Of a DNA stretch of 64,000 bases, positions 9 through 12,138 are shown piece after piece. Source of the DNA: Candidatus Bathyarchaeota archaeon (lineage in GTDB: Archaea > Thermoproteota > Bathyarchaeia > TCS64 > PIYN01); the NCBI GenBank assembly GCA_003601775.1, contig PIYN01000002.1, positions 203 through 64,202 on the forward strand. The letters are read 5' to 3'. A program made the position numbers and the translations under genes. Each line of letters starts with the position of its first letter. Within the stretch, counting starts at the first letter, position 1. The notes beneath the pieces were generated by a model, which saw only the letters and a program-made list of their open reading frames with translations, was not told the origin of the DNA and did not search any database.

Positions 9-467
9 TTGGATAAGGTTGCAAGGGAGATGTGTCATTACCTCCTTCAGATGAGAGGTAGAGGTGTAGCAAATGTTTATGCCATTAAGAAGAATCCTCT
101 ATCGAATTGGACTTACACCCCACTTATCGGGACTTTATATCTGAAACCTCCTTCTAAAGGACTGATTGATGCCTATGAGAAGTTGAGGCAGGAACATATG
201 GATGCCCTTTTCAATAGTCTGGGCGATCAATTGAAGGTTATGAGGCAGAGGAAAGAGGAGAAACTTAGGAGAGCATTGAAGCCCAGATACACCTTTGAAC
301 AACAAGTGGAAAGGGCTCGTCAAATACTGCCTGAAATCTACCATCCAGATAGACCTCTGAAGAAGGGGAGAATAGACGTCAATTTGATGAGGGAGAAGTT
401 AGATATCGGTCACAACCTCGCATATAGAATCCGTGCAAGGCTTCTAAGAGAATTAGAAGGAGAATAA
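9..467 (+). CDS. hypothetical basic protein in an AT-rich, possibly foreign segment
   Basis: Intact 152-aa ORF with K/R-rich C-terminal half. Local GC is about 43% versus >60% elsewhere. I recognise no conserved motif. Confidence 0.35.
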   Translation: MDKVAREMCHYLLQMRGRGVANVYAIKKNPLSNWTYTPLIGTLYLKPPSKGLIDAYEKLRQEHMDALFNSLGDQLKVMRQRKEEKLRRALKPRYTFEQQVERARQILPEIYHPDRPLKKGRIDVNLMREKLDIGHNLAYRIRARLLRELEGE

Positions 468-590
468 GAGCCTTATTTTTACTACTCTAAGTATGAAGGG
501 ATATATGAACGCTGTGTAAGTCTTTTCAATCGCTGTATTAGTTATAACACTTGGAAAACCTTAAATATATTAGTCCTAACTGTAATAGAA

Positions 591-1088
591 ATGTCCTCTC
601 TGAGCACCCGGGAGATAGCTGCCTCCGGCATCATGGCCGCCCTCGTCTGCGTCACCACCATGTTTATTCAGGTACCGATACCAGCTACTAAGGGCTACTT
701 CAACATCGGAGATGCTATGATTATGATCGCCGCCCTGACTTTCGGACCAGTAATCGGGGCTTTAGCGGGAGGAATTGGCTCATCCCTTGCTGACCTACTT
801 AGTCCCTATTACTACTGGGCTCCCTTCACCTTAATCATCAAGGGAACTGAGGGGTTCCTCGCTGGTTGGATCCTCACCAGAGGCGGTGAAGAGAGCGTCT
901 CAAAGGTCGTCGTGGCGTGGGCTGTCGGGGGATTAGAGATGGTCATAGGATACTTCATCACTCAAGTATTTATGTACGGGCTCGGTGCTGCCCTTTTTGA
1001 AGCCCCTTTCAATCTCGTCCAAATGGCCGTTGGAGGAATCGTAGGCATCCCTCTATCCTTAGCCCTGAGAACGAGAATTAGAGCCTGA
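591..1088 (+). CDS. ECF-type transporter substrate-specific (S) component-like membrane protein (ThiW/QueT-like)
   Basis: 165 aa with about 5 hydrophobic helices and a small-residue-rich core (GDAMIMIAALTFGP, AGGIGSSLADL) typical of ECF S components. An AT-rich promoter region precedes it. No EcfAA'T genes are adjacent. Confidence 0.45.
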   Translation: MSSLSTREIAASGIMAALVCVTTMFIQVPIPATKGYFNIGDAMIMIAALTFGPVIGALAGGIGSSLADLLSPYYYWAPFTLIIKGTEGFLAGWILTRGGEESVSKVVVAWAVGGLEMVIGYFITQVFMYGLGAALFEAPFNLVQMAVGGIVGIPLSLALRTRIRA

Positions 1089-1161
1089 CTCATTATAACC
1101 TCCTACTTTAGATTTTATTCCCATCTCCTTTTTTAATACCTTCTTTGAAAGGTTAGGTTAG

Positions 1162-2052
1162 ATGTCCTCCGTCGACCTCGCCGTCTCCCTCTTCCGCAGA
1201 CTTGAGGGCGGCGACTTCCGTGTGCTCCAGGGCTTGGAGTTGGGCATGACCCAGTATAGGTTCGTCCCTTTGGAGGAGGTCGTGAGGTACTCCTCCCTCC
1301 CCCCCTCCGAGGTCGGGTTCAGGATCTCGAACCTCCACAGGCTGGGCCTCGTCTATCGATGGGTCGGCCCCTATGTGGGGTATGCCCTCAACACCGCGGG
1401 GTACGACTGCCTCGCCCTCAACGCCCTGGTCAAGGGAGGCATCTTGGAGGCCCTTGGGAAGCCCCTGGGGGTGGGGAAGGAGGCCGACGTCTACGACGCC
1501 CTCACCCCGGAGGGCGAACGGGTGGCCGTCAAGTTCCACAGGATCGGGAGGACGAGCTTCAGGGATACGAGGAGGAAGAGGGGGTACGAGGGGGATCGGA
1601 GGCATATCTCTTGGCTCTACCGGTCGAGGCTCGCGGCGGAGAGGGAGTTCGAGGCCCTGAAGCTGGTTCACTCGGTTGGGGTGGCCGTCCCCCGGCCGAT
1701 AAAGCAGAACAGACACGTCATCGTCATGGGCCTCATCGAGGGATGGGAGCTCGCCGAGGTGGGGGAGATCGACGAGGCTGAGGCCGTTCTCAATGAGGTG
1801 CTGGAGAACGTGAGGCTCTCCTACCAGAAGGCGGGGGTCATCCACGCAGACCTCAGCGAATACAACATAATAATCCAGGCCGACGGCCACGTGCTCCTCA
1901 TCGACTGGCCCCAGTACGTCACAAGGGAGCATCCAAACGCAGAGGACCTCCTGAGGAGGGACGTCCGGAACGTCCTCAACTACTTCAGGAGAAAATTCAG
2001 GGTAAGGAGGAGTCTGGAGGAGGAACTGGCGAGGATAAAGGGAGAGGCTTAG
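1162..2052 (+). CDS. rio2: RIO-type serine/threonine protein kinase Rio2
   Basis: N-terminal winged-helix region followed by a RIO kinase core. Motifs: GKEADVY...VAVKFHRIG, catalytic HADLSEYNIII, and metal-binding LIDWPQ. Confidence 0.75.
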   Translation: MSSVDLAVSLFRRLEGGDFRVLQGLELGMTQYRFVPLEEVVRYSSLPPSEVGFRISNLHRLGLVYRWVGPYVGYALNTAGYDCLALNALVKGGILEALGKPLGVGKEADVYDALTPEGERVAVKFHRIGRTSFRDTRRKRGYEGDRRHISWLYRSRLAAEREFEALKLVHSVGVAVPRPIKQNRHVIVMGLIEGWELAEVGEIDEAEAVLNEVLENVRLSYQKAGVIHADLSEYNIIIQADGHVLLIDWPQYVTREHPNAEDLLRRDVRNVLNYFRRKFRVRRSLEEELARIKGEA

Positions 2053-3053
2053 GGCCTCCAGCCCTCGATGAGGAGCAGGTAGAGGGAGGAGGCCGTGAGG
2101 TCCGCGGTTGTCCCGGGGTTGAGGTCCCCCCCGGCTTTATGGAGCTCCTCGTCCATCTCCAGGACCCTCCTCCTCCCCTCCGGGGTGGTGAGCCCCCCCT
2201 CCTCCAACGCCTCGATGGCCATCCTGCTCACCCTCAAGGCGGCCTCCTTTCCAGACTTCCTCTCGATGAGGGAGTCGGGGACCCTCGAGAGGATGTGGAG
2301 GTAGGTATGGACGACCGCGGTGTTGATATCCCCCGTCTCCCCCAGCACTCCTTTCAGGTAGGGGTATCCAAGGGTGAAGGTGATGGAGAAGTCCGTCACC
2401 CACTCCTCGCAGATGGAGTCCCTCCTCCTGCACTCCTCGAAGACCCTCAGGGGCGTCACCCCCTCCTTCTCAACCCTGGTCAACGTCTCATCGTCCAAGA
2501 CGTCGAGGGCCTCAACCCTCCCGAGGACCCTCGGAGAGACAGCGATACGGATGGCCCTGTAGATCCCCAGAGTGTCCCTGGGCGTGGACGCCCGGATGAT
2601 CCTCCCAAGGTCACGCCTCAGCCGGCAGAGGTCGATACGCTCGTTCTCCGAGAGGTGGAGGCCGGAGGCGGCGGCCAGTGGGGAGAGGAGGAGTATGATG
2701 CCGAGGTTCACGTTCCCCCCGCCCTGCCACGCCCCTGCCTCCCTCACAGCCCTGAGGATCTGGTCACCTAGGCCGATCTCTCCGAGACCTAAGTGCCCCC
2801 TCCCGGCGTCGTAACCCCTCTGGGCCAGCTCCTTCATCGCCGGGCCGATGGCGACGGCGCCAGCGAGGAACTGCTCGAACCTCGTCTTTGAGGTGTCCCT
2901 CGTCCTGTGGACGTTCCCTGGCTTGGGGTACCCTGAGACCTCCAGGAGGGAGGCTAGGACGGCACATCTCTCCACGAGGTCCCCCACATCACTCCTCGAT
3001 GGACTTGGAGTCATAGGGTATCTTACCCCGAAATACGTAGTGGTTAAAGGCAT
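2049..3053 (-). CDS. triphosphoribosyl-dephospho-CoA synthase (CitG/MdcB)-family protein associated with H4MPT biosynthesis
   Basis: 334 aa with a CitG-like signature (SGYPKPGNVHRTRD, GGGNVNLGIILL). It lies divergent to a methanopterin gene block. CitG-family genes (orf21-type) are known components of H4MPT biosynthesis clusters. Confidence 0.6.
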   Translation of the reverse strand: MPLTTTYFGVRYPMTPSPSRSDVGDLVERCAVLASLLEVSGYPKPGNVHRTRDTSKTRFEQFLAGAVAIGPAMKELAQRGYDAGRGHLGLGEIGLGDQILRAVREAGAWQGGGNVNLGIILLLSPLAAASGLHLSENERIDLCRLRRDLGRIIRASTPRDTLGIYRAIRIAVSPRVLGRVEALDVLDDETLTRVEKEGVTPLRVFEECRRRDSICEEWVTDFSITFTLGYPYLKGVLGETGDINTAVVHTYLHILSRVPDSLIERKSGKEAALRVSRMAIEALEEGGLTTPEGRRRVLEMDEELHKAGGDLNPGTTADLTASSLYLLLIEGWRP

Positions 3054-3091
3054 AAATAGGCTAAGGGCAGACTTCCTCCTGGTGTTCTGAG

Positions 3092-3667
3092 ATGGTTCGG
3101 GTGTTGGGGATCGTTGGGAGCCCCAGGGTAGGGGGGAATACGGAGCGCCTCGTCGCCGAGGCCTTGAGGGCGGCTGAAGAGGAGGGGGCTGAGACGAAAT
3201 TGTTGAGGCTGGCCGGGAGGGAGATCAGGCCATGTGACGCCTGCTTATCCTGCAGGAGGACCGGGGAGTGTCGGATAGAGGACGACTTCGGCCCCGTCTT
3301 CGATGAGATGCTCAGGTCCGATGGGATCATCCTGGCCACGCCCGTCTACTTCGGCTCCGCGACGCCCCAGATAAAGGCCCTCATCGACAGGGCGGGGTTC
3401 CTCTCCTCCGCGAGAGGCAGGGTCTTCGAGGACAAAGTCGGCGGGGCCCTCGTCGTCGCGAGGAGGGCCGGGCAGAACTTCACCTTCGCCCAGCTCCTCT
3501 TCTTCTTCCTCCACCAAGGTATGATCGTCCCCGGCTCCACCTACTGGAACATAGCCTTCGGGAGGGAGAAGGGGGAGGTGGAGGGGGATGAAGAGGGCCT
3601 GAGGACGGTCAGGAACTTCGGGAGGAAGATGGTCTGGCTCATCAGGAGGATTAAGGGCTCGGATTAA
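3092..3667 (+). CDS. iron-sulfur flavoprotein / NADPH-dependent FMN reductase family (Isf-like)
   Basis: Flavodoxin-like start (VLGIVGSPRVGGNTE) plus a compact cysteine cluster, CDACLSCRRTGEC (CX2CX2CX5C), characteristic of archaeal Isf proteins. Confidence 0.6.
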   Translation: MVRVLGIVGSPRVGGNTERLVAEALRAAEEEGAETKLLRLAGREIRPCDACLSCRRTGECRIEDDFGPVFDEMLRSDGIILATPVYFGSATPQIKALIDRAGFLSSARGRVFEDKVGGALVVARRAGQNFTFAQLLFFFLHQGMIVPGSTYWNIAFGREKGEVEGDEEGLRTVRNFGRKMVWLIRRIKGSD

Positions 3668-3765
3668 TCCGTCTCTTCGCCTTCCTTTTATAGTTCGCAG
3701 TCGAGGGGGATCATAGGAGGAGAACAGCCCTGAAGGGTCTCCGCGAGGGCGACTACATCGAGACT

Positions 3766-4731
3766 GTGGAGCACCTCATCTTCACCGTCAAGGGACTATC
3801 CCACCCGAGGGGGAGGACCATCGCCTACCTCCGCTACATCCCGGACTCCAGAGGAGATAGGAGGAGGGGAGACGGCCTCAGGTTCAGGAGGGTCTACGAC
3901 ACCAGGGAGACCACCGAGTACCTGAGGAGGAACTTCCCCGAGTACCTGCACCCCGACGAGAGGTGGGGGGTACTCCTCCAATCCGTCCCTGATACAGAGG
4001 TCCTGAGGGTCTACCACCCAACGGAGGGACTGGAGGAGATGAGGAGGAGACCTGCTGGGGAGCTTGGGGAATTGGCCGTGAGGTTCGCCGAGGCGATAGC
4101 CAGAGAGGCCGATATTCCACTGGGGGGCATCGGCGTCTCAGGGTCCCTCCTCCTCGGGTTGGCGACCACCTCCTCCGACATCGACCTCGTCATCTACGGT
4201 GAGGAAAACTGCCGGCGGGCCTATGAGGCCCTTAGGAGGCTGAGGGAGAGTGAAACCTGGATCTCTCCCTACGACCGTGAAAGGGTGATGGGGGTCGTGG
4301 AGTCGAGGTGGGGGGAGACCGGGATCGACTTGAACGCTTTCGTCGAGATCGAGAGGGCGAAGGTCCTCCACGGCCTCGTCGAGGGAAGGGACTACTTCAT
4401 CAGGCTCGTGAAGGACTGGGAAGAAGTCGAGGAGGAACCGATCTCTTGTAGCCCCTTGGGCACCGCAAGGGTCCAGGCCAGAATTAAGGACGATAGCGAC
4501 TCCATCTTCACCCCCTGCAGCTACCCCTTAGAGGAATGTAGGTTCCTGGAGGGAGGGGCTGAGGGGTTCGTCAAGGAGCTGGCGAGCTTCAGGGGGAGGT
4601 TCACGGAGCAGGCCCGGGAGGGGGAAGTCGTCGAAGCGAGAGGGAGATTAGAGAAGGTCCTCACCGAGGGGGGGACCCATCTGAGGCTCCTACTGGGAGA
4701 CCCAAGGGATTACCTCATCCCGATAGGGTGA
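3766..4731 (+). CDS. Pol-beta superfamily nucleotidyltransferase with a C-terminal beta-rich domain
   Basis: Minimal NTase motif GVSGSLLLGLATTSSDIDLVIYGE (GS...DxD). About 150 aa of a C-terminal domain I do not recognise. Its stop overlaps the start of the next gene (4728), which suggests an operon. Confidence 0.5.
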   Translation: MEHLIFTVKGLSHPRGRTIAYLRYIPDSRGDRRRGDGLRFRRVYDTRETTEYLRRNFPEYLHPDERWGVLLQSVPDTEVLRVYHPTEGLEEMRRRPAGELGELAVRFAEAIAREADIPLGGIGVSGSLLLGLATTSSDIDLVIYGEENCRRAYEALRRLRESETWISPYDRERVMGVVESRWGETGIDLNAFVEIERAKVLHGLVEGRDYFIRLVKDWEEVEEEPISCSPLGTARVQARIKDDSDSIFTPCSYPLEECRFLEGGAEGFVKELASFRGRFTEQAREGEVVEARGRLEKVLTEGGTHLRLLLGDPRDYLIPIG

Positions 4732-5405
4732 GAGGACGGATGTTCCAAGGAGATGATGTGCAAACGCTCCTTGATAAACTGGGCTTCATACCCGGGGAGA
4801 TCGTGGAGATCATCCTAACGACCCGCGGGGTCGAGGGGGAACTGAATGCGGCCCCCATGGGGGTCATCAGGGTTGGAGCCAGGACCCTCGAGGTCAGACC
4901 CTTCCTCGAGACGAGGACCTACAGGAACCTGAAGGATACGGGCCTGGGGGTGGCAAATATCACATATGATGTGGGCCTCTTCTTGGAGACGGCCTTCAAG
5001 AGGGGTGGCGTGAGACCGGAGTGGTTCGAGGAGGAGCCGGTTGCAGATCCACCAGGCCTCAGGGGGGCGGACGCCCTCCTCTTCCTCTCCGTCCTGGAGG
5101 AGAGCTCCTTCTCGGAGATGAGGGCGAGGTTCCTCTGCCGGGTGGAGTGGGTGAGGGTCCGGACCCCCTTCCCCAGGGCCTTCAGCAGGGGCTTCGCCGC
5201 CGCCATCGAGGCGATCATCCACGCCACGAGGATAGAGGCCTTTATAAGGGAAGGGAGGAGGGAAGAAGTTGATAGGCTACTCCGTCTGTTCAGGGGGTGC
5301 AGGGATGTCATCGAGAGGGTCTCCCCCGAGGACTCGCCGAACAGGAGGGTCGTGGAGACCCTGGAGGACATGATAGCGGAGTGGATGAGTAAGGAATGGA
5401 GGTAG
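4728..5405 (+). CDS. DUF447-family protein (FMN-binding split-barrel-like; methanopterin-associated)
   Basis: 225 aa. The N-terminal PGEIVEIILTT...NAAPMGV resembles the flavin-reductase-like/DUF447 fold that co-occurs with mptG in H4MPT clusters. It overlaps both neighbours by 4 and 10 nt. Confidence 0.45.
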   Translation: MRGRMFQGDDVQTLLDKLGFIPGEIVEIILTTRGVEGELNAAPMGVIRVGARTLEVRPFLETRTYRNLKDTGLGVANITYDVGLFLETAFKRGGVRPEWFEEEPVADPPGLRGADALLFLSVLEESSFSEMRARFLCRVEWVRVRTPFPRAFSRGFAAAIEAIIHATRIEAFIREGRREEVDRLLRLFRGCRDVIERVSPEDSPNRRVVETLEDMIAEWMSKEWR

Positions 5406-6352
5406 TGGTGAAAACCCCCGCCAGGCTCCACTTCGGGATCATCGACATGAGGGGAGACCTCGGGAGGATCTACGGCAGCGTCGGCGTCGCCATAGATCGC
5501 CCCAACATCATCCTAAGGGCGAGGTCCTCCGGGGAGTTAAGGGTCTCCGGCTCGAGGGCTGAGAGGGTCAGGGGGTACGCCGAGGCCCTCCTGAGGGACT
5601 TCAGCCTCGAGGGAGGGGCCGAGATCAAGGTCCTGAGGGATATGCCAGAGCACGTCGGGTTCGGCTCAGGGACACAGCTCGCCCTGGCGACGGGGTCAGC
5701 CCTCTCAAAGCTCTTCGACCTCGGTCTCACGGTCGAGGAGATCTCAGAGAGGCTGGGGAGGGGGAGGAGATCGGGCGTGGGGACCTACGCCTTCAAGGTG
5801 GGGGGGTTCGTAGTAGATGGGGGTCACAGCACCAAGAACCCCCAAGGGGTCCCGCCCCTCATCTTCAGGTCAGAGGTCCCAGAGGACTGGCTCTTCATCG
5901 TCGGCCTCCCAAGACTGGGCCGAGGGGTGAGCGGAGGGAGTGAGAGGGAGGCCTTCAGACGGGTCCCCAAACCATCCCCGGAGCTCGTGGGGGAGGTCTC
6001 GAGGGTCGTCCTCCTCAAGATGATCCCCTCCATCATAGAGGGCGACATAGAAGCCTTCGGAGAGGCCATGACAACCCTGGACTTCAAGTTCGGGGAGTGC
6101 TGGATGACCGTCCAGGGGGGGAGGTTCTCCCACCCCCTCGTGGAGGCGGGCATAAACTTCCTCCTCGAGGAAGGGGTCCACGGTGTCGGGCAGAGCTCCT
6201 GGGGCCCCGTCTTCTACGGCCTCGTCGAGGGAGAGGGACGGGCAAGGAAGATTAGTGGAAGACTCCAGGAGTTCTTGGAGGAGAGGGGTGGGGGGGAGGT
6301 CTTCTACACCAGGGCAAACAATCATGGGGCGGAGATTACCGTAAGACGCTGA
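5396..6352 (+). CDS. mptG: beta-ribofuranosylaminobenzene 5'-phosphate (beta-RFAP) synthase, GHMP-kinase fold
   Basis: Alignable by eye to MJ1427-type RFAP synthase. Matching elements: KTPARLHFGIIDMRGDLGRIYGSVGVAI, the GHMP motif GFGSGTQLALATGSAL, and FVVDGGHS. Confidence 0.75.
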   Translation: MEVVVKTPARLHFGIIDMRGDLGRIYGSVGVAIDRPNIILRARSSGELRVSGSRAERVRGYAEALLRDFSLEGGAEIKVLRDMPEHVGFGSGTQLALATGSALSKLFDLGLTVEEISERLGRGRRSGVGTYAFKVGGFVVDGGHSTKNPQGVPPLIFRSEVPEDWLFIVGLPRLGRGVSGGSEREAFRRVPKPSPELVGEVSRVVLLKMIPSIIEGDIEAFGEAMTTLDFKFGECWMTVQGGRFSHPLVEAGINFLLEEGVHGVGQSSWGPVFYGLVEGEGRARKISGRLQEFLEERGGGEVFYTRANNHGAEITVRR

Positions 6353-6364
6353 GGGTGTGAGGGG

Positions 6365-7102
6365 ATGTTCCTGGCCTGGGGGATCACTGGTGCGGGGCAC
6401 TTCCTCCTCGAGACCTTCACCCTGATGGAGGAGGTGGCGAGACGGGGGGACGTGAAGGTGACGACCTACCTGACGAGGGCGGGGGAGGAGGTCGTGAAGA
6501 TCTACGGGCTCTGGGACCGCCTTAGGGAGATCTCCGACGGCGGCTACTACTCCGAGATCCTCAGGGAGAAGGAGGAGGGTGCGAGCTCACCCTCGGCCGG
6601 GCGCCTGGCGAGGGGCGTCTACAGGGCGCTCATAGTCTCCCCCGCCTCAGCCAACACCGTCGCGAAGATCAGGGTCGGCATCGCCGATACCCTGGTGACG
6701 AACGCCGTCGCCCAGGCCCTGAAGTCTGGGACGCCCGTGCTGATCCTCCCGACGGACCAGGCCCTGGAGGAGTTCGAGACCACGCTGCCGCATAGGGTTG
6801 ATAGGGAGGTCTGTAGGGGGTGTAGGCCCTGCCCAGCGAGGGAGGTATGTCCCACTGATGCCTTAAGGAGGGTGGAGGGTCGGATGAGGATTCACCTCCC
6901 CCTCTGTGTGGGCTGCGGTCTATGCCTGGAGGCCTGCCCCTATGGGGCGATAAGGTTTGGGGAGAGGATAAGGGTGAGGGCGAGGGGGGTGGATGTGGAG
7001 AATGTGGAGTCCCTGAGGAGGATGGAGGGCCTGAAGGTCGCCTCCGACCCCGAGGAGCTCAGAGAGGCCATAGAGGAACTCCTGGGAGGTTCCAGCCCTT
7101 GA
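6365..7102 (+). CDS. dmrX: archaeal dihydromethanopterin reductase-like flavoprotein (AfpA/DmrX family) with two [4Fe-4S] ferredoxin motifs
   Basis: HFCD/AfpA flavoprotein signature (WGITGAGH, SPASANTVAKI) plus two CxxCxxCxxxCP motifs (CRGCRPCPAREVCP; CVGCGLCLEACP), as in M. mazei DmrX. Confidence 0.6.
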   Translation: MFLAWGITGAGHFLLETFTLMEEVARRGDVKVTTYLTRAGEEVVKIYGLWDRLREISDGGYYSEILREKEEGASSPSAGRLARGVYRALIVSPASANTVAKIRVGIADTLVTNAVAQALKSGTPVLILPTDQALEEFETTLPHRVDREVCRGCRPCPAREVCPTDALRRVEGRMRIHLPLCVGCGLCLEACPYGAIRFGERIRVRARGVDVENVESLRRMEGLKVASDPEELREAIEELLGGSSP

Positions 7103-7125
7103 GGGTCCTCCTGGTAACGGGGCTG

Positions 7126-8688
7126 ATGGCCAAGGAGATGGTGGAGCGCTACGCGAGGGTGAACGGCGTCGAGGCCACGGTCCTCGCCCTCCCCGTCTCC
7201 GTAGCCGCCTTCCTCACCCCCGATCTCGTCGCGGAGAGGCTGAGAGGGAGGGACCTGAGCGGATACGACCTCATCCTCCTCCCAGGGGCCATGAAGGGGG
7301 ATGTCTCAGCTGTTGAGGAGGCTACGGGAGTCCCCACCTTCAAGGGGCCCCTCCACGCAGCAGACCTCCCCTTAGTCCTAAGCCTCCTCGGCGAGATCGA
7401 GCTCTCGAAGACCCGTCCAGCCTCGGAGCTGATCAGGGGAAGACTGAGGAAACGCGCCCTCAAGGAAATAGAGTCGGCCGAGAGGGAGTGGAGGAGACTC
7501 CTCGAGGAGGGAGGGGGGTTCACCCTGGGGAAGGGGGCCGGTAGGGTAGCCGTGGGACGGCTGCTCCCGATGCGCGTAGTGGCGGAGATCGTGGACGCCC
7601 CGAGGCTCACGGATAGAGAAATAGAGCGGAGGGCCATCTACTACGCGGAGTCGGGCGCCGATATAATCGACGTGGGGATGATGGCGGGGAGGCCCAGGCC
7701 AGGGGAGGTGCGGAGGATCCTCGAGGCCGTGAGGAGCGCCGTCGAAAAGCCCGTCAGCATAGACACCCTCGACCCCTCGGAGATAAGGGCCGCCGTGAAG
7801 GCGGAGGTGGACCTCGTCCTGAGCTTAGACAGGGGGAATATGGAGGAGGTTGCACCCCTCCTCCAGGACATCCCCGTCGTCGTGATACCGACGGATGTCA
7901 GAAGAGGGGAGCTACCCCGGAGGGCTGAAGAACGCGTGAGGCGGTTGGAGAAGAACATAGAGCAGGCCCGGGAGATGGGGGTCGAGAAGGTCGTCGCGGA
8001 CCCGATATTGGAGCCCGCCCTGACCCCGGGCGTCTTCGAGTCCCTCAGGGCCTACCACCTCTTCGCCGAGAGGAACCCAAGGATCCCCCTCCTCTTCGGC
8101 GTGGGGAACGTGACCGAGCTGATGGACATCGACTCCGTGGGCGTGAACGGACTACTCGCGGCGATGGCCGCGGAGCTCGGCGTGAGCCTCCTCTTCACGC
8201 CCGAGCATAGCGACAAGGCGAGGGGGAGCGTGAGGGAGCTCGCCACGGCGTCAAGGATGATGTTCCTCGCGAAGAGGAGGAGGACAACCCCCAAGGACCT
8301 CGGCATCGACCTCCTCATCCTCAAGGATAAGAGGTTCAGGGAGGAAGGTTATAAGAGGAGCATCGAGGAGGGCGTTGAGGTCCTGGAGCCCGAGGAGGTG
8401 GAGGGCTACCAGGAGGATGAGAGGGGCTGGTTCAGGATACTCCTCGACAGGGAGGAGGGGAAGATCGTCCTCCTCCATTTCCCCAGAGGAGGGAAGAGGC
8501 CGGACCTCATATTGAAGGGCAGGAAGGCAAGGCCCCTATACATCGCAGCCATCAAGAGGGGATTGGTCTCGAGGCTCGACCATGCGGCCTACCTCGGGAG
8601 GGAGCTGGGGAAGGCGGAGGTCGCCCTCTCCACGGGGAAGGCCTATGTGGAGGATGAACCCCTCTTCCTCCGCTTCCACTCGGCGTAG
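7126..8688 (+). CDS. mptH: dihydropteroate synthase-like pterin-binding protein (MptH-type)
   Basis: Pterin-binding barrel motifs ([21 protein letters not shown]) preceded by an N-terminal domain, as in the long archaeal DHPS homologs used for H4MPT. An in-frame TTG at 7099 overlapping the upstream stop is an alternative start. The ORF-track start at 6922 is rejected. Confidence 0.6.
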
Positions 8689-9758
8689 TCCTCCACGATC
8701 CTCCTCCAGTCAACGTACTCCCCGACGATATCCCTCGTCAGCCTTATCTTCTTCAGAGAGGAAGGAGTGGGGGAGATCCTACCGCTGATCTCCTCCAGCC
8801 GTCTCACCGTGGTGTAGGTATCCTGGGGGACGAGGACTATGGGGATCCCCTTCTCCTCAGCCCTCGTCAGGACGCTCAGGGAGGGGTAGAGGTTCCCCGT
8901 GAGGACCAGGACGCTCATATCCGCCTCGAGGGCGGTGAGGATCAGGTCCGTGCGGTCGCCACCGGTGATGAGGGCGCTCCCAGCGCCCCTCCTCAGCCAG
9001 TTCAGGGCCGATTCCGGGGTCATCGCCCCGACGAGGAATCCCTCCACAAGGCGGTCCAGGTGCTCCCGCCCGGCCAGGACCTCGGCGTTCAGCTCCCTCA
9101 CGAGGTCCTCCACACTCGGCAAGCTCAGCTCCTTCTTATCTGGGACCGCCCCCAGAGACTCTATGCCACACCTCTTAAGGGTGGGTAGGAGGACGCCCCT
9201 GACCCTTTCGATGACCTGTCTGGGGACGAAGTTGATGATGACCCCCATGAGCTCCCCCCCACCCCCCTCTATGAACTTTTTATAGAGGACGGCCTCCTCC
9301 ACGATCTCGTCTCCGCTCCCCTTCACGACGAAGAGGACCTTCGCGTCCAGCTCCCTTGAGAGCCGCGGGACATCACACCCCATGCAGGTGAGCGTCTCCG
9401 GCCGGGGAGGGCCCTCCACGATGACGAGGTCCTTCCCCCTGCTCAGCTCCCCATAGGCCTCAACTACTCTCTCAACCAGCCTCTGCCTCTCATCCGAGAG
9501 GAGCTCCAGATACCATCTGCCGAGGACTATGGGGGTTATCACCTCCAGGGACTCCTTGAGGGAGAGGACCTCCTTCATCGTGACGGTATCTGGATCCACA
9601 AGCCTCCCCTCCACGGTCTTGAGGCCGAACCCGATGGGCTTGAAGTATCCGACCCTGAGCCCGATCTCCTGGAACTTCTGGAAGAGCCCCAGGCAGAGGG
9701 CTGTCTTCCCACTCAACTCGGTCCCGCAGACGATTATGGGGTATGCCAACTCTCTCAA
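8643..9758 (-). CDS. standalone homolog of the phosphotransacetylase N-terminal regulatory domain (BioD-like P-loop + DRTGG domain)
   Basis: IIVCGTELSGKTALCLGLFQKFQEIGLRVGYFKPIG aligns with E. coli Pta N-terminus [37 protein letters not shown]. The DRTGG motif (ITGGDRTDLILTAL) is present. It overlaps the ACD gene by 4 nt, indicating an operon. Confidence 0.6.
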   Translation of the reverse strand: MRELAYPIIVCGTELSGKTALCLGLFQKFQEIGLRVGYFKPIGFGLKTVEGRLVDPDTVTMKEVLSLKESLEVITPIVLGRWYLELLSDERQRLVERVVEAYGELSRGKDLVIVEGPPRPETLTCMGCDVPRLSRELDAKVLFVVKGSGDEIVEEAVLYKKFIEGGGGELMGVIINFVPRQVIERVRGVLLPTLKRCGIESLGAVPDKKELSLPSVEDLVRELNAEVLAGREHLDRLVEGFLVGAMTPESALNWLRRGAGSALITGGDRTDLILTALEADMSVLVLTGNLYPSLSVLTRAEEKGIPIVLVPQDTYTTVRRLEEISGRISPTPSSLKKIRLTRDIVGEYVDWRRIVEDYAEWKRRKRGSSST

Positions 9759-11896
9759 CTCCTCGATAAGGTGATCTTCACATCCACCGCTATACAGCCC
9801 CTCCCTTCCTCATAGGCGAACAGGGGATTTATATCCATCTCCAGGATCTCGGGGAAGTCTGTCACCAGCTGGCTCACCCTGAGGATGATATTCAGGAGGG
9901 CGTTGATATCCGAGGGTTTCTCCCCCCGCACACCCTTGAGTAGGGTGTAGGCCTTCGTCTCCTCGACCATACCTCGAGCCTCCTCCAGGGACAACGGGGC
10001 CAGCCTAAAGGAGACGTCCCTCAGGAAGTTGACGTAGATGCCCCCGAGGCCGAACATGATGAGCGGCCCGAACTGGGGGTCCCTGCTGACACCCACGATG
10101 AGCTCCCTCCCCTGGGGGACCATCTTCATCACCAAGACACCGTATATCTGGGCCCTCGGCATGTACCGGGAGACCCGGGTGACGATCGACCTATAGGCCT
10201 CCCTGACCTCCTCCGGCGAACTGATATTGAGGACGATGCCCCCGACATCTGACTTATGGAGGATCTCAGGGGAGACGACCTTCAGGACGACGGGGTAGCC
10301 TATCTCCTCGGCAGCACGCATAGCCTCCTCCATGCTCGCCGCCATCCTCATGAGGGGGACGTGGATCCCATAGGCCCTGGCCACCCCCGCGGCCTCGTGG
10401 GGGAGGAGGACGACCCTCCCCTCCCTCCTCGCGGCCTCGACGATCTCACGGACCGCAGCTTTATCGACGTCGTAGAAGAACTCAGGCCTACTCTCAGGGC
10501 GCTCCAGGAACTCGGCATACTCTATGAGAGCCGCCAGCGCCCTAACGGCCTTCTCCGGGAAGTTGAAGCAGGGGATCCCATGATCTATGAGGTACCTGGA
10601 GGCCTCCTCCACGCTCTCCCCACCCATGAAGACGGCGAGGACGGGCTTATCCCTCCCCCCGCTGAGCTCCACGATGGCCTTAGCGGTCTCCACGCTCTCC
10701 GTCATCGCCTGGGGGGTGAGGATGACGAGGAGGGAGCTCACAGAGGGGTCATCGAGGACCTTCTCTATCGCTGTCCTGTACCTCTCCGCCCTGGCGTCCC
10801 CCAGGATGTCTACGGGGTTGTGGACGCTGGAGGCTGGGGGGAGCCCCTCCCTGAGCCCCTTGAGGGTCTCCGCGGAGAGGCGGGCGAGCTTCACGCCGAG
10901 CGCCTCACACATATCGGTCGCCAAGATCCCGGGTCCACCTGCATTCGTCACAATCGCGACGCTGTTTCCCCTCGGCAGCGGCTGGGTGCTGAAGGCGATG
11001 GCATAGTCGAAGAGCTCCTCCACACTCCGCGCCATGATGACCCCCGACTGCTTGAACGCAGTCTTGTAGGCCGTGAAGCTGCCCACCATCGCCCCCGTGT
11101 GGCTCCCCGCGGCCCTGGCGCCCGCCGTGGAGGTCCCGCCCTTGAGGACGATGAGGGGCTTCTTCCTTACAACTTCCCTCGCAACCCGGACGAAACGCTC
11201 CCCCTCCTCTATGGACTCCACGTAGAGGAGGATGACCCTGACCTCCGGGTCCTCGGCCATCGCCTCTATGAAGTCTATCTCATTCAAGTCCGCCTTATTC
11301 CCCAGGCTCACGAAGCTGGCGAAGCCTATATCCTCCCTCAGGACCCAGTCCAGGACGGCCGTCCCCAGGGCGCCGCTCTGGGAGATGAAGCCGATATTCC
11401 CCTTCCTGGGCATGGAGGCGGCGAAGCTGAGGTTCAGGGGGGTGTGAGTATCGATCACGCCGAGGCAGTTGGGGCCCTGCATCCTCATCCCGTAGCGTCT
11501 GCAGACCTCGAGGAGCTGCCTCTCCAGGGCGGCGCCCTCCACCCCAGTCTCCTTGAAGCCCGCGGAGATCACGATGACGGCCTTCACACCCTTCTCCCCG
11601 CAGGCCTTAACGACGTCAAGGACCAACGGCGCCGGGATCGCTATGACGGCGAGGTCGACCTCGTCGGGGATCTCCCTCACATCGCTGAAGCACCTCAGGC
11701 CCAGGATCTCCTTCGCCTTCGGGTTGACGGGGTAGACCTTCCCCGGGAACCCTGTATCGATCAAGTTCCTGACGAGGATATGCCCCACCTTCCCAGGGTT
11801 CCGGGAGGCCCCGATCACGGCCACGGACCTGGGGCGGAAGATGGCGCTGAGGATGGTCGAGGGGGACCTCGCCTCAAGTCGGGAAGGGGGGACCAT
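9755..11896 (-). CDS. acd: acetyl-CoA synthetase (ADP-forming), fused alpha-beta subunits (NDP-forming acyl-CoA synthetase)
   Basis: CoA-binding start (RSVAVIGASRNPGKVG), succinyl-CoA-synthetase-like central domains, catalytic His region (GSHTGAM) and a C-terminal ATP-grasp. The ATG at 11896 is preferred over the ORF-track start at 12271, whose first 125 aa lack homology. Confidence 0.8.
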   Translation of the reverse strand: MVPPSRLEARSPSTILSAIFRPRSVAVIGASRNPGKVGHILVRNLIDTGFPGKVYPVNPKAKEILGLRCFSDVREIPDEVDLAVIAIPAPLVLDVVKACGEKGVKAVIVISAGFKETGVEGAALERQLLEVCRRYGMRMQGPNCLGVIDTHTPLNLSFAASMPRKGNIGFISQSGALGTAVLDWVLREDIGFASFVSLGNKADLNEIDFIEAMAEDPEVRVILLYVESIEEGERFVRVAREVVRKKPLIVLKGGTSTAGARAAGSHTGAMVGSFTAYKTAFKQSGVIMARSVEELFDYAIAFSTQPLPRGNSVAIVTNAGGPGILATDMCEALGVKLARLSAETLKGLREGLPPASSVHNPVDILGDARAERYRTAIEKVLDDPSVSSLLVILTPQAMTESVETAKAIVELSGGRDKPVLAVFMGGESVEEASRYLIDHGIPCFNFPEKAVRALAALIEYAEFLERPESRPEFFYDVDKAAVREIVEAARREGRVVLLPHEAAGVARAYGIHVPLMRMAASMEEAMRAAEEIGYPVVLKVVSPEILHKSDVGGIVLNISSPEEVREAYRSIVTRVSRYMPRAQIYGVLVMKMVPQGRELIVGVSRDPQFGPLIMFGLGGIYVNFLRDVSFRLAPLSLEEARGMVEETKAYTLLKGVRGEKPSDINALLNIILRVSQLVTDFPEILEMDINPLFAYEEGRGCIAVDVKITLSRS

Positions 11897-12138
11897 AGGG
11901 GCTTCAAGTATCAAGGAACCCTCCAAGATAAAAACCTTAATCCTCCCGGGCCGGAGGGACAGGTTCTCTGTCCAAGGCTTCGAAACTACATTTTCTATAA
12001 GGCGTCGATATTTTGGGAGGTAGGAGACCCTTGAAAAGGGCTCCTTCACCCTGAAATAGACAGGATTAATGACTGAAATTCCCTCCTCATTCATCGGGTG
12101 GAGGAGGGTTGGACGATCTTTATGTCCATGTAACTGGC

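Follow-up and report, generated by a model that had tools for sequence, protein, structure and literature searches.

A standalone homologue of the non-catalytic half of phosphotransacetylase encoded directly behind an ADP-forming acetyl-CoA synthetase in a Bathyarchaeia-like archaeon

In class IIa phosphotransacetylases (Pta), the N-terminal half (residues ~1-390) is needed for oligomerisation, maximal activity and the allosteric response (summarised in PMC12724200 from Campos-Bermudez 2010 and Brinsmade 2007). According to that summary, this half mediates hexamer formation and has NADH, pyruvate, phosphoenolpyruvate (PEP) and ATP as its effectors, and what its DRTGG part does is described as unknown. 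Here, we have analysed a stretch of 64,000 nucleotides from the Bathyarchaeota contig PIYN01000002.1 (the window), in which a reverse-strand gene at 8643..9758 encodes a separate protein resembling this N-terminal half. [quoted passage not shown] ACD forms acetate in a single, ATP-conserving step and operates in fermentative and acetogenic archaea, in uncultured lineages such as Bathyarchaeia, Asgard archaea and Hadarchaeota, and in several bacterial phyla. To our knowledge, no post-translational control of this enzyme has been reported.

The closest described arrangement comes from the haloarchaea. In Haloferax mediterranei a 364-aa 'putative PTA', HFX_0997, adjoins HFX_0998, an acetyl-CoA synthetase of the ADP-forming type, and the same arrangement is described as widespread in haloarchaea, H. 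volcanii and Haloarcula hispanica among them (PMC11784441). HFX_0997 is upregulated by glucose, as is the H. volcanii protein (Kuprat et al. 2021, as cited in PMC11784441), and its physiological function is given there as undetermined. In the same source, acetate overflow is ascribed to the Haloferax ACD, which is downregulated on acetate, and plasmid-borne ACD genes alone are reported to restore acetate activation in a mutant. There, the neighbouring protein is treated as a Pta candidate rather than as a non-catalytic half; our comparison with the HFX and HVO proteins is by description, and these belong to mesophilic halophiles, whereas the window comes from a high-GC Bathyarchaeia-like archaeon (GC content ~60%; the nearest homologues, 57-97% identical, are metagenomic and those named by source are Bathyarchaeia). 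An earlier note on this DNA had considered the pairing of the two genes uncharacterised, which holds for its function but not for the adjacency itself: this is already known from haloarchaea, and the window represents one more member of a known pairing.

[quoted passage not shown] DVU3031 thus resembles the PtaN-like protein in its two-domain, standalone form and in its acetyl-CoA-to-acetate context, but its neighbour is Pta-Ack rather than ACD, and the comparison is by description only. Its position beside pta-ack, together with the L-lactate phenotype, indicates that proteins of this kind are functional in the flux from acetyl-CoA to acetate. The haloarchaeal 'Pta homolog' of Barnhart et al. 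2015 was also considered as a possible PtaN-like protein and set aside, as it concerns PTA_PTB/MaeB catalytic-type domains. In the literature that we searched, nothing linked DRTGG to ACD, and nothing on DRTGG together with ADP-forming acetyl-CoA synthetase discussed the pairing.

A Pta N-terminal half without the catalytic domain

The longest open reading frame (ORF) of the PtaN-like gene encodes 371 aa, or about 368 aa from its probable start, and Pfam recognises two domains in it: a BioD-like P-loop domain (AAA_26; residues 10-212, 9123..9731, E 3e-19) and a DRTGG domain (residues 218-323, 8790..9107, E 2e-32), with nothing further above threshold. A C-terminal helical hairpin follows (residues 335-370, 8649..8756; model helices 335-348 and 351-370), within which W351 is nearly invariant in the homologue alignment. 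Against E. coli Pta, which is laid out as AAA_26, DRTGG and PTA_PTB (392-707), BLASTP returns a single colinear alignment of residues 8-364 with Pta 7-386 (26% identity, E 4e-17), and the hairpin aligns with Pta residues ~350-386, the linker ahead of the catalytic domain. The best NCBIfam match is likewise the Pta model PRK05632, covering positions 10-379 of 708 (E 9e-41). The earlier note had aligned this protein with the BioD-like P-loop plus DRTGG N-terminal domain of bacterial Pta, and had suggested a profile search for AAA_26 and DRTGG; the two Pfam families, PRK05632 and the colinear alignment all bear out that assignment, which corresponds to the N-half of a class II Pta. Judged by its sequence, the PtaN-like protein equals the non-catalytic part of a class IIa Pta, with no catalytic domain attached. 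It shares with that half the two domains in the same order, colinear over its whole length, and a tie to an enzyme interconverting acetyl-CoA and acetyl-phosphate or acetate species; it differs in being a separate polypeptide whose partner is ACD and not a PTA_PTB domain.

Names in current use imply that such proteins are real phosphotransacetylases, which would place a Pta-type route alongside ACD: 'phosphate acetyltransferase [archaeon BMS3Bbin15]' and 'phosphotransacetylase family protein' are found among the database entries, and 'putative PTA' is the term used in PMC11784441. We regard this as almost certainly mistaken and reject the assignment to Pta (EC 2.3.1.8). The PtaN-like protein has no PTA_PTB domain (PF01515), its alignment ends at Pta residue 386, ahead of the catalytic domain, and it scores 140.2 bits against a cut-off of 418 bits for PRK05632. 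Furthermore, neither a Pta catalytic domain nor an acetate kinase was found in the 64-kb window, which also holds no second ACD, or in any of the 82 related loci described below.

Families that share one or other of the two domains are more distant. Both the bioD model (TIGR00347; E 3e-7) and the CBS-DRTGG pyrophosphatases (~1e-11) match far more weakly than the Pta N-half, and so the affinity to CobQ/CobB-type or CBS-DRTGG proteins, which the earlier note had named as the outcome that would overturn its assignment, was not what we observed. Dethiobiotin synthetase (BioD) was rejected as an identity, given a TIGR00347 score of 30.5 bits against a cut-off of 83.3 and the lack of a biotin gene context, and a CobQ/CobB-type amidotransferase was rejected with CbiA at 17.2 bits against a cut-off of 25.4 and no GATase or GATase_3 domain present. 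The CBS-DRTGG insert of family II pyrophosphatases (3l2b/3l31) is a regulatory, oligomerising element of a nucleotide-regulated enzyme and has the DRTGG fold in common with the PtaN-like protein, but it binds nucleotides on CBS rather than on DRTGG, has no BioD-like domain and shows weak similarity (E ~1e-5).

An AlphaFold2 (AF2) model of the PtaN-like protein (pLDDT 87.9, pTM 0.83) contains two well-folded domains. Using Foldseek, the N-domain retrieves the dethiobiotin synthetases 1dbs/1dts with TM(target) of ~0.7, and also the N-domain of E. coli Pta (7t85), whilst the C-domain retrieves AF1212 of Archaeoglobus fulgidus (2ioj) with TM(target) of 0.84 and 49% identity. AF1212 is a structural-genomics entry that consists of a DRTGG domain only, and no functional study of it was found in the searched literature. 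A homologue search with the AF1212 fragment gave eight matches of 52-72% identity, and one metagenomic locus (L087, 3..1471) carries the C-terminus of an ACD, then a 217-aa AAA_26 gene and then a 118-aa DRTGG gene that is 72% identical to AF1212. This order indicates an Archaeoglobus-type version of the PtaN-like module, split into two genes, to which AF1212 also belongs. A more fragmented copy of the split module in another locus (L085) does not lie beside ACD. AF1211 is reported to be the characterised ACD I of A. fulgidus (Musfeldt & Schonheit 2002).

Residue conservation was counted over 76 members of the PtaN-like family. In the Walker A motif of the window protein (G17-K18-T19, 9702..9710, reverse strand), the glycine is present in all 76 sequences, the lysine in 75 and a threonine or serine at position 19 in 69. 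Beyond this motif, D57 is invariant (76/76), K40 is found in 75/76 and N176 in 74/76, and E115 is kept in 61 and replaced in the other 15. Polar residues of the DRTGG domain (T265-G-G-D-R269, D271, T287-G288 and D313-T314) are conserved in 74-76 of the 76. When E. coli BioD is aligned, its P-loop, K37 (= K40), E115 and N175 (= N176) fall on conserved PtaN-like positions, at an overall identity of 15-23%. The N-domain fold is common to BioD and to the ATPase domains of CobQ/CobB and CTP synthase; the PtaN-like protein differs in its additional DRTGG domain and hairpin and in having no biotin or cobalamin context. Since the BioD residues are kept, the protein would be expected to behave like a BioD-fold NTPase, which is not the same as membership of the BioD family, and the alignments indicate that the nucleotide site of the PtaN-like family is under selection.

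The corresponding site in Pta is different. In E. coli, Deinococcus and Pseudomonas, a small sample, Walker A of the class IIa Pta reads G-L-T in all three cases, with leucine in place of the lysine found in 75 of the 76 standalone proteins. By this comparison the standalone protein is not a copy of the Pta domain, as it keeps a site that all three Ptas examined have lost. The description 'free Pta regulatory domain' in the earlier note therefore stands as a statement of homology and falls short as one of simple copying, with Walker A (GK[T/S]) and the BioD residues intact. Given the difference in Walker A (GK[T/S] vs G-L-T), the sensing of NADH, pyruvate and PEP is not transferable from Pta to this protein. 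The direction of the proposed transplantation from Pta is also doubtful, because it is the N-half of Pta that appears to be the degenerate copy.

Linkage of the PtaN-like gene to ACD across Archaea and Bacteria

The ACD of the window, 713 aa in length, carries the Pfam domains CoA_binding_2, Succ_CoA_lig, Ligase_CoA_2 and ATP-grasp_5 (E 1e-18 to 1e-90) in alpha-then-beta order, and passes the TIGR02717 model (AcCoA-syn-alpha) with 611.6 bits against a cut-off of 567.15. Two motifs could be read from its translation: SHTGA, from residue 265 on (11090..11104, reverse strand), whose His266 we take from established ACD and succinyl-CoA synthetase (SCS) enzymology (Brasen et al. 2008) to be the alpha-domain phosphohistidine, and HKSDVGG (10238..10258, reverse strand), which provides the second, beta-domain catalytic histidine, His547. 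With the full domain set and both catalytic-histidine motifs present, the gene is predicted to encode a competent, catalytically complete ACD-family enzyme. Its substrate is probably acetyl-CoA/acetate. It falls under the cut-off of every substrate-specific NCBIfam equivalog considered (among them 4-hydroxybutyrate-, 3-hydroxypropionate- and Archaeoglobus-type acetate-CoA ligases), scoring 714 bits against a cut-off of 1300 for 4-hydroxybutyrate-CoA ligase, and its nearest solved structure is the ADP-forming 4-hydroxybutyrate-CoA ligase 8wzu (E 1.5e-184).

At the junction of the two genes (9747..9764, reverse strand), a Shine-Dalgarno-like GAGGAG (9764..9759) precedes the TGA stop of ACD (9757..9755), and the first in-frame TTG of the PtaN-like ORF occupies 9758..9756. 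The overlap of the PtaN-like gene with the ACD stop that the earlier note reported is real for the longest ORF, as TTGA at 9758..9755. It does not apply to what is probably the true start, the second TTG at 9749..9747, which would leave a 5-nt gap: homologues start level with codon 4 of the window ORF, where this TTG follows GAGGAG by 9 nt. In the nearest orthologue on a long contig (L001, 75% identical), the two genes are likewise 5 nt apart. Whichever start applies, their coupling is tight.

To place the window among its relatives we used 82 loci, namely the best 80 of at least 595 relatives (one genome per species) together with two metagenomic contigs. The relatives at these loci are 35-75% identical to the window protein and come from at least ten phyla of Archaea and Bacteria, with Bathyarchaeia, four Asgard lineages, Thermoproteota (Ignisphaera, Desulfurococcaceae), Hadarchaeota, Thermococci and Methanosarcinales on the archaeal side, and Bacillota, Chloroflexota, Brocadiales/Planctomycetota, Actinomycetota and others on the bacterial side. 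A fused ACD lies immediately upstream on the same strand in 77 of the 82 (94%). The gap between the two genes has a median of 13 bp and is at most 30 bp in 62 of the 77 loci, and 21 junctions overlap. When the ORFs of all loci were clustered, ACD and PtaN-like were the only common families, the next commonest being present in 13 loci. Pairwise distances of the two proteins are strongly correlated (r = 0.91; the observed value was reached by 0 of 999 Mantel permutations), and distances between Archaea and Bacteria barely exceed those within either domain, which argues that the pair travels as a unit, even across the two domains of life.

The family is a large one. A homologue search gave 1199 matches, the top 120 of which are 320-386 aa long and nearly all AAA_26 plus DRTGG, and at E <= 1e-30 there are at least 348 clusters at 50% identity, the best 150 representatives of which are all no longer than 370 aa. 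Megaplasmids of cultured haloarchaea (Halobaculum, Halomicrobium, Halolamina, Natronococcus) bear the same pair with a 4-bp overlap in the PGAP annotation, under the names 'acetate--CoA ligase' and 'phosphotransacetylase family protein', and their PtaN-like proteins (AAA_26 plus DRTGG) are 33-37% identical to that of the window. The locus in the window is an ordinary member of this annotated family.

The operon with a fused alpha-beta ACD that the earlier note had proposed is thus real in the window and recurs elsewhere, rather than lacking synteny in other genomes. The linkage is near-obligatory and spans both domains, and functional coupling of the two genes is firmly shown. One might still argue that the adjacency carries no function, the PtaN-like gene being an accidental neighbour or a selfish hitch-hiker, and it is the case that a few PtaN-like genes occur without ACD and many ACDs without PtaN-like. 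Against this, the linkage persists across two domains while other neighbours vary, the junctions are tightly coupled or overlapping, the distance matrices are correlated, and both Haloferax proteins respond to glucose as far as PMC11784441 describes them. The adjacency goes far beyond chance, an accidental origin is strongly disfavoured, and we consider a functionless pairing in either form highly improbable.

The wider surroundings of the pair vary between lineages. In 13 loci (L018, L022, L024, L027-L029, L031-L033, L036, L040, L043 and L054), which represent a Bathyarchaeia subclade, Hadarchaeota, Thermoproteota and Thermococci, a divergent gene directly upstream of ACD (~1800..3700, reverse strand, in locus coordinates) encodes an acetyl-CoA hydrolase/transferase-GNAT fusion of ~620 aa, and a small GNAT gene lies directly upstream of ACD in Halomicrobium (L088, 2104..2742). 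A link to protein acetylation is possible, as in Pat, where an ACD-like domain is fused to GNAT. In seven Methanosarcinales loci (L060, L061, L066, L069, L072, L074 and L080), a gene for an AMP-forming acetyl-CoA synthetase is convergent right after the PtaN-like gene and is followed by phosphoglycerate kinase; acetate-activating and acetate-forming enzymes are therefore clustered there. In L034 the AMP-forming synthetase lies ~3.4 kb downstream of the pair. One contig labelled as a Patescibacteria group bacterium (L009), with ACD and PtaN-like proteins 65% and 51% identical to those of the window, is probably a mis-binned archaeal contig. In L027 (3863..5954), ACD matches in two adjoining pieces meeting at 5433/5434, and ORF calling gave no more than a fragment of 1.2 kb. 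The gene may be frameshifted or a pseudogene, or the assembly may be in error.

Within the window, the pair converges on a methanopterin-biosynthesis-like cluster on the forward strand (4728..8688), comprising a DUF447-like ORF (4728..5405), an ORF resembling GHMP kinases (5396..6352), a flavoprotein that carries two 4Fe-4S motifs (6365..7102) and a protein with DUF6513, Pterin_bind and DUF4346 domains (about 7100..8688). This cluster also adjoins the pair in L001. Where the convergent pterin-binding gene (ending at 8688) and PtaN-like gene (ending at 8643) meet, their 3' ends overlap by 46 bp (8643..8688); their L001 orthologues do not overlap, and the basic tail of the window protein is longer. 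Antisense to ACD, a 592-aa ORF (10256..12034, forward strand) has a low-complexity translation rich in Arg, Gly, Pro and Asp. Similar long ORFs lie opposite other real genes of the window, and we regard them as typical high-GC artefacts and not as genes.

Possible roles of the PtaN-like protein

We favour, with moderate confidence, a reading in which the PtaN-like protein is an accessory, nucleotide-binding and regulatory subunit of ACD. The considerations behind it are the linkage and co-divergence of the two genes, the homology to the Pta N-half, the conserved nucleotide site, the co-expression seen in Haloferax and the case of DVU3031. In such a scheme the protein would be made in step with ACD by translational coupling, its P-loop would bind an adenine nucleotide, and it would oligomerise through its DRTGG and/or BioD-like interfaces, so setting the oligomeric state, activity or direction of ACD according to the energy or carbon state of the cell. 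It would then act in trans as the homologous N-half acts in cis for class II Pta. Given that ACD alone restores acetate activation in Haloferax, an accessory role fits better than a catalytic one.

Several observations weigh against this reading. Five of the 82 loci have no adjacent ACD, although one of these is a short contig. In two Methanocella loci (L046 and L058), the genes flanking a lone PtaN-like gene encode a form-III-like RuBisCO large subunit and a quinolinate phosphoribosyltransferase (QRPTase), with no ACD within 6 kb; in one Chloroflexi locus it adjoins FBPase instead of ACD; and an Anaerolineae locus (L057) has two tandem PtaN-like paralogues (26..2586 and 2593..5132) and no ACD. 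Behind the tandem paralogues come genes resembling NuoE (2Fe-2S thioredoxin-like) and NuoF (Complex1_51K), an NADH-related context. Many ACD-family genes, moreover, have no PtaN-like partner. In a plasmid collection, 376 records gave an ACD-family match compared with 35 that matched PtaN-like; of these 35, the 12 haloarchaeal matches examined are standalone proteins and most of the others listed are full-length Ptas. ACDs without the partner in this set include a cyanobacterial one from Kovacikia (45% identity), a haloarchaeal paralogue from Salinirubellus in a polyhydroxyalkanoate (PHA)/thiolase context, and the listed proteobacterial and actinobacterial homologues, many of which are ACD-GNAT fusions. 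On pMNOD01 of Methylobacterium nodulans (L092, 6001..8019), a beta-then-alpha ACD-family gene lies beside formyl-CoA transferase and phosphoketolase genes, and no PtaN-like gene accompanies it. The rule that emerges is asymmetric: PtaN-like is almost always with ACD, and only one clade of ACD is with PtaN-like. No fusion of ACD with PtaN-like occurs among the 77 loci or the best 150 cluster representatives, though no dedicated search with a chimeric query was made. Native and recombinant ACDs have been purified as homodimers or tetramers, and we know of no partner reported for them. Physical binding between the two proteins is presumed by the accessory-subunit reading, which we count against it, and the nucleotide dependence and any regulatory effect on ACD are likewise what we infer. 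Finally, the full set of BioD catalytic residues would suit an enzyme equally well.

This last point deserves consideration, since the PtaN-like protein may be an enzyme in its own right, an ATP-dependent one of the BioD/CobQ/CTP-synthase type. It would transfer phosphate to a carboxylate- or carbamate-like group, and its target would be ACD itself or some substrate, intermediate or product of the ACD reaction. The active-site set of BioD is kept (the GTxxxGK[T/S] P-loop, the K37-equivalent lysine, E115 and N176) and the N-domain is structurally nearest to dethiobiotin synthetases. In the DRTGG domain, the TGGDR motif, D271 and DT are invariant to an extent that speaks more for a ligand site than for a plain interface, and the loss of the Walker lysine from the Pta copy implies that the standalone protein does something that the Pta domain does not. 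However, the bioD and CbiA models are both missed, E115 is replaced in a fifth of the family members counted, there is no glutamine amidotransferase or other partner domain, and the neighbours in the window are ACD and pterin-biosynthesis genes rather than biotin or cobalamin genes. The interconversion of acetyl-CoA and acetate also has no known missing step for such an enzyme to fill, and on balance we think a separate catalytic function rather unlikely. Less probable again is a SIMIBI-type, ATP-dependent dimerisation switch acting in the assembly, maturation or localisation of ACD, comparable with MinD/ParA, HypB or Get3 and not allosteric. The P-loop is intact, ATPase-type HypB and the GPN-loop GTPase PAB0955 are also among the structural matches, and the weak CbiA/MinD/ParA match rises above the cut-off in haloarchaeal homologues. 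ACD, on the other hand, requires no known cofactor insertion, its genes alone are functional when expressed, and the nearest homology is to the Pta N-half, with its role in oligomerisation and allostery.

Returning to the accessory-subunit reading, a stronger form of it may be put forward tentatively. The PtaN-like protein could be an ATP/ADP-binding subunit that has been overlooked in one major clade of ACD, found in Archaea and Bacteria, and that in a stoichiometric complex with the enzyme would gate the flux or direction of acetyl-CoA <-> acetate + ATP by energy charge. The N-domain of Pta could then be a degenerate, fused descendant of this older module with its intact P-loop. The difference between GKT in the standalone protein and GLT in the three Ptas provides a testable hypothesis on the origin of the Pta regulatory domain.

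Four of these points seem to be missing from the literature that was searched: that the PtaN-like protein amounts to Pta's non-catalytic half alone, that in both prokaryotic domains it is linked to ACD almost obligatorily, that it keeps a P-loop which the three examined Ptas have lost, and that its names in databases encourage false Pta calls in archaeal metagenome-assembled genomes (MAGs). Because the protein is named 'phosphate acetyltransferase' in spite of the absent catalytic domain, metabolic reconstructions from archaeal MAGs could wrongly infer a Pta step. A protein that almost always lies directly behind ACD, with kinship to an allosteric Pta half and an intact nucleotide site, is an obvious candidate for the control of ACD, and direct testing is feasible, given that the genetically tractable Haloferax has the same pair. 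If the stronger form of the accessory-subunit reading is true, then in-vitro ACD enzymology, carried out on the catalytic protein alone, would have missed the physiological control of this enzyme.

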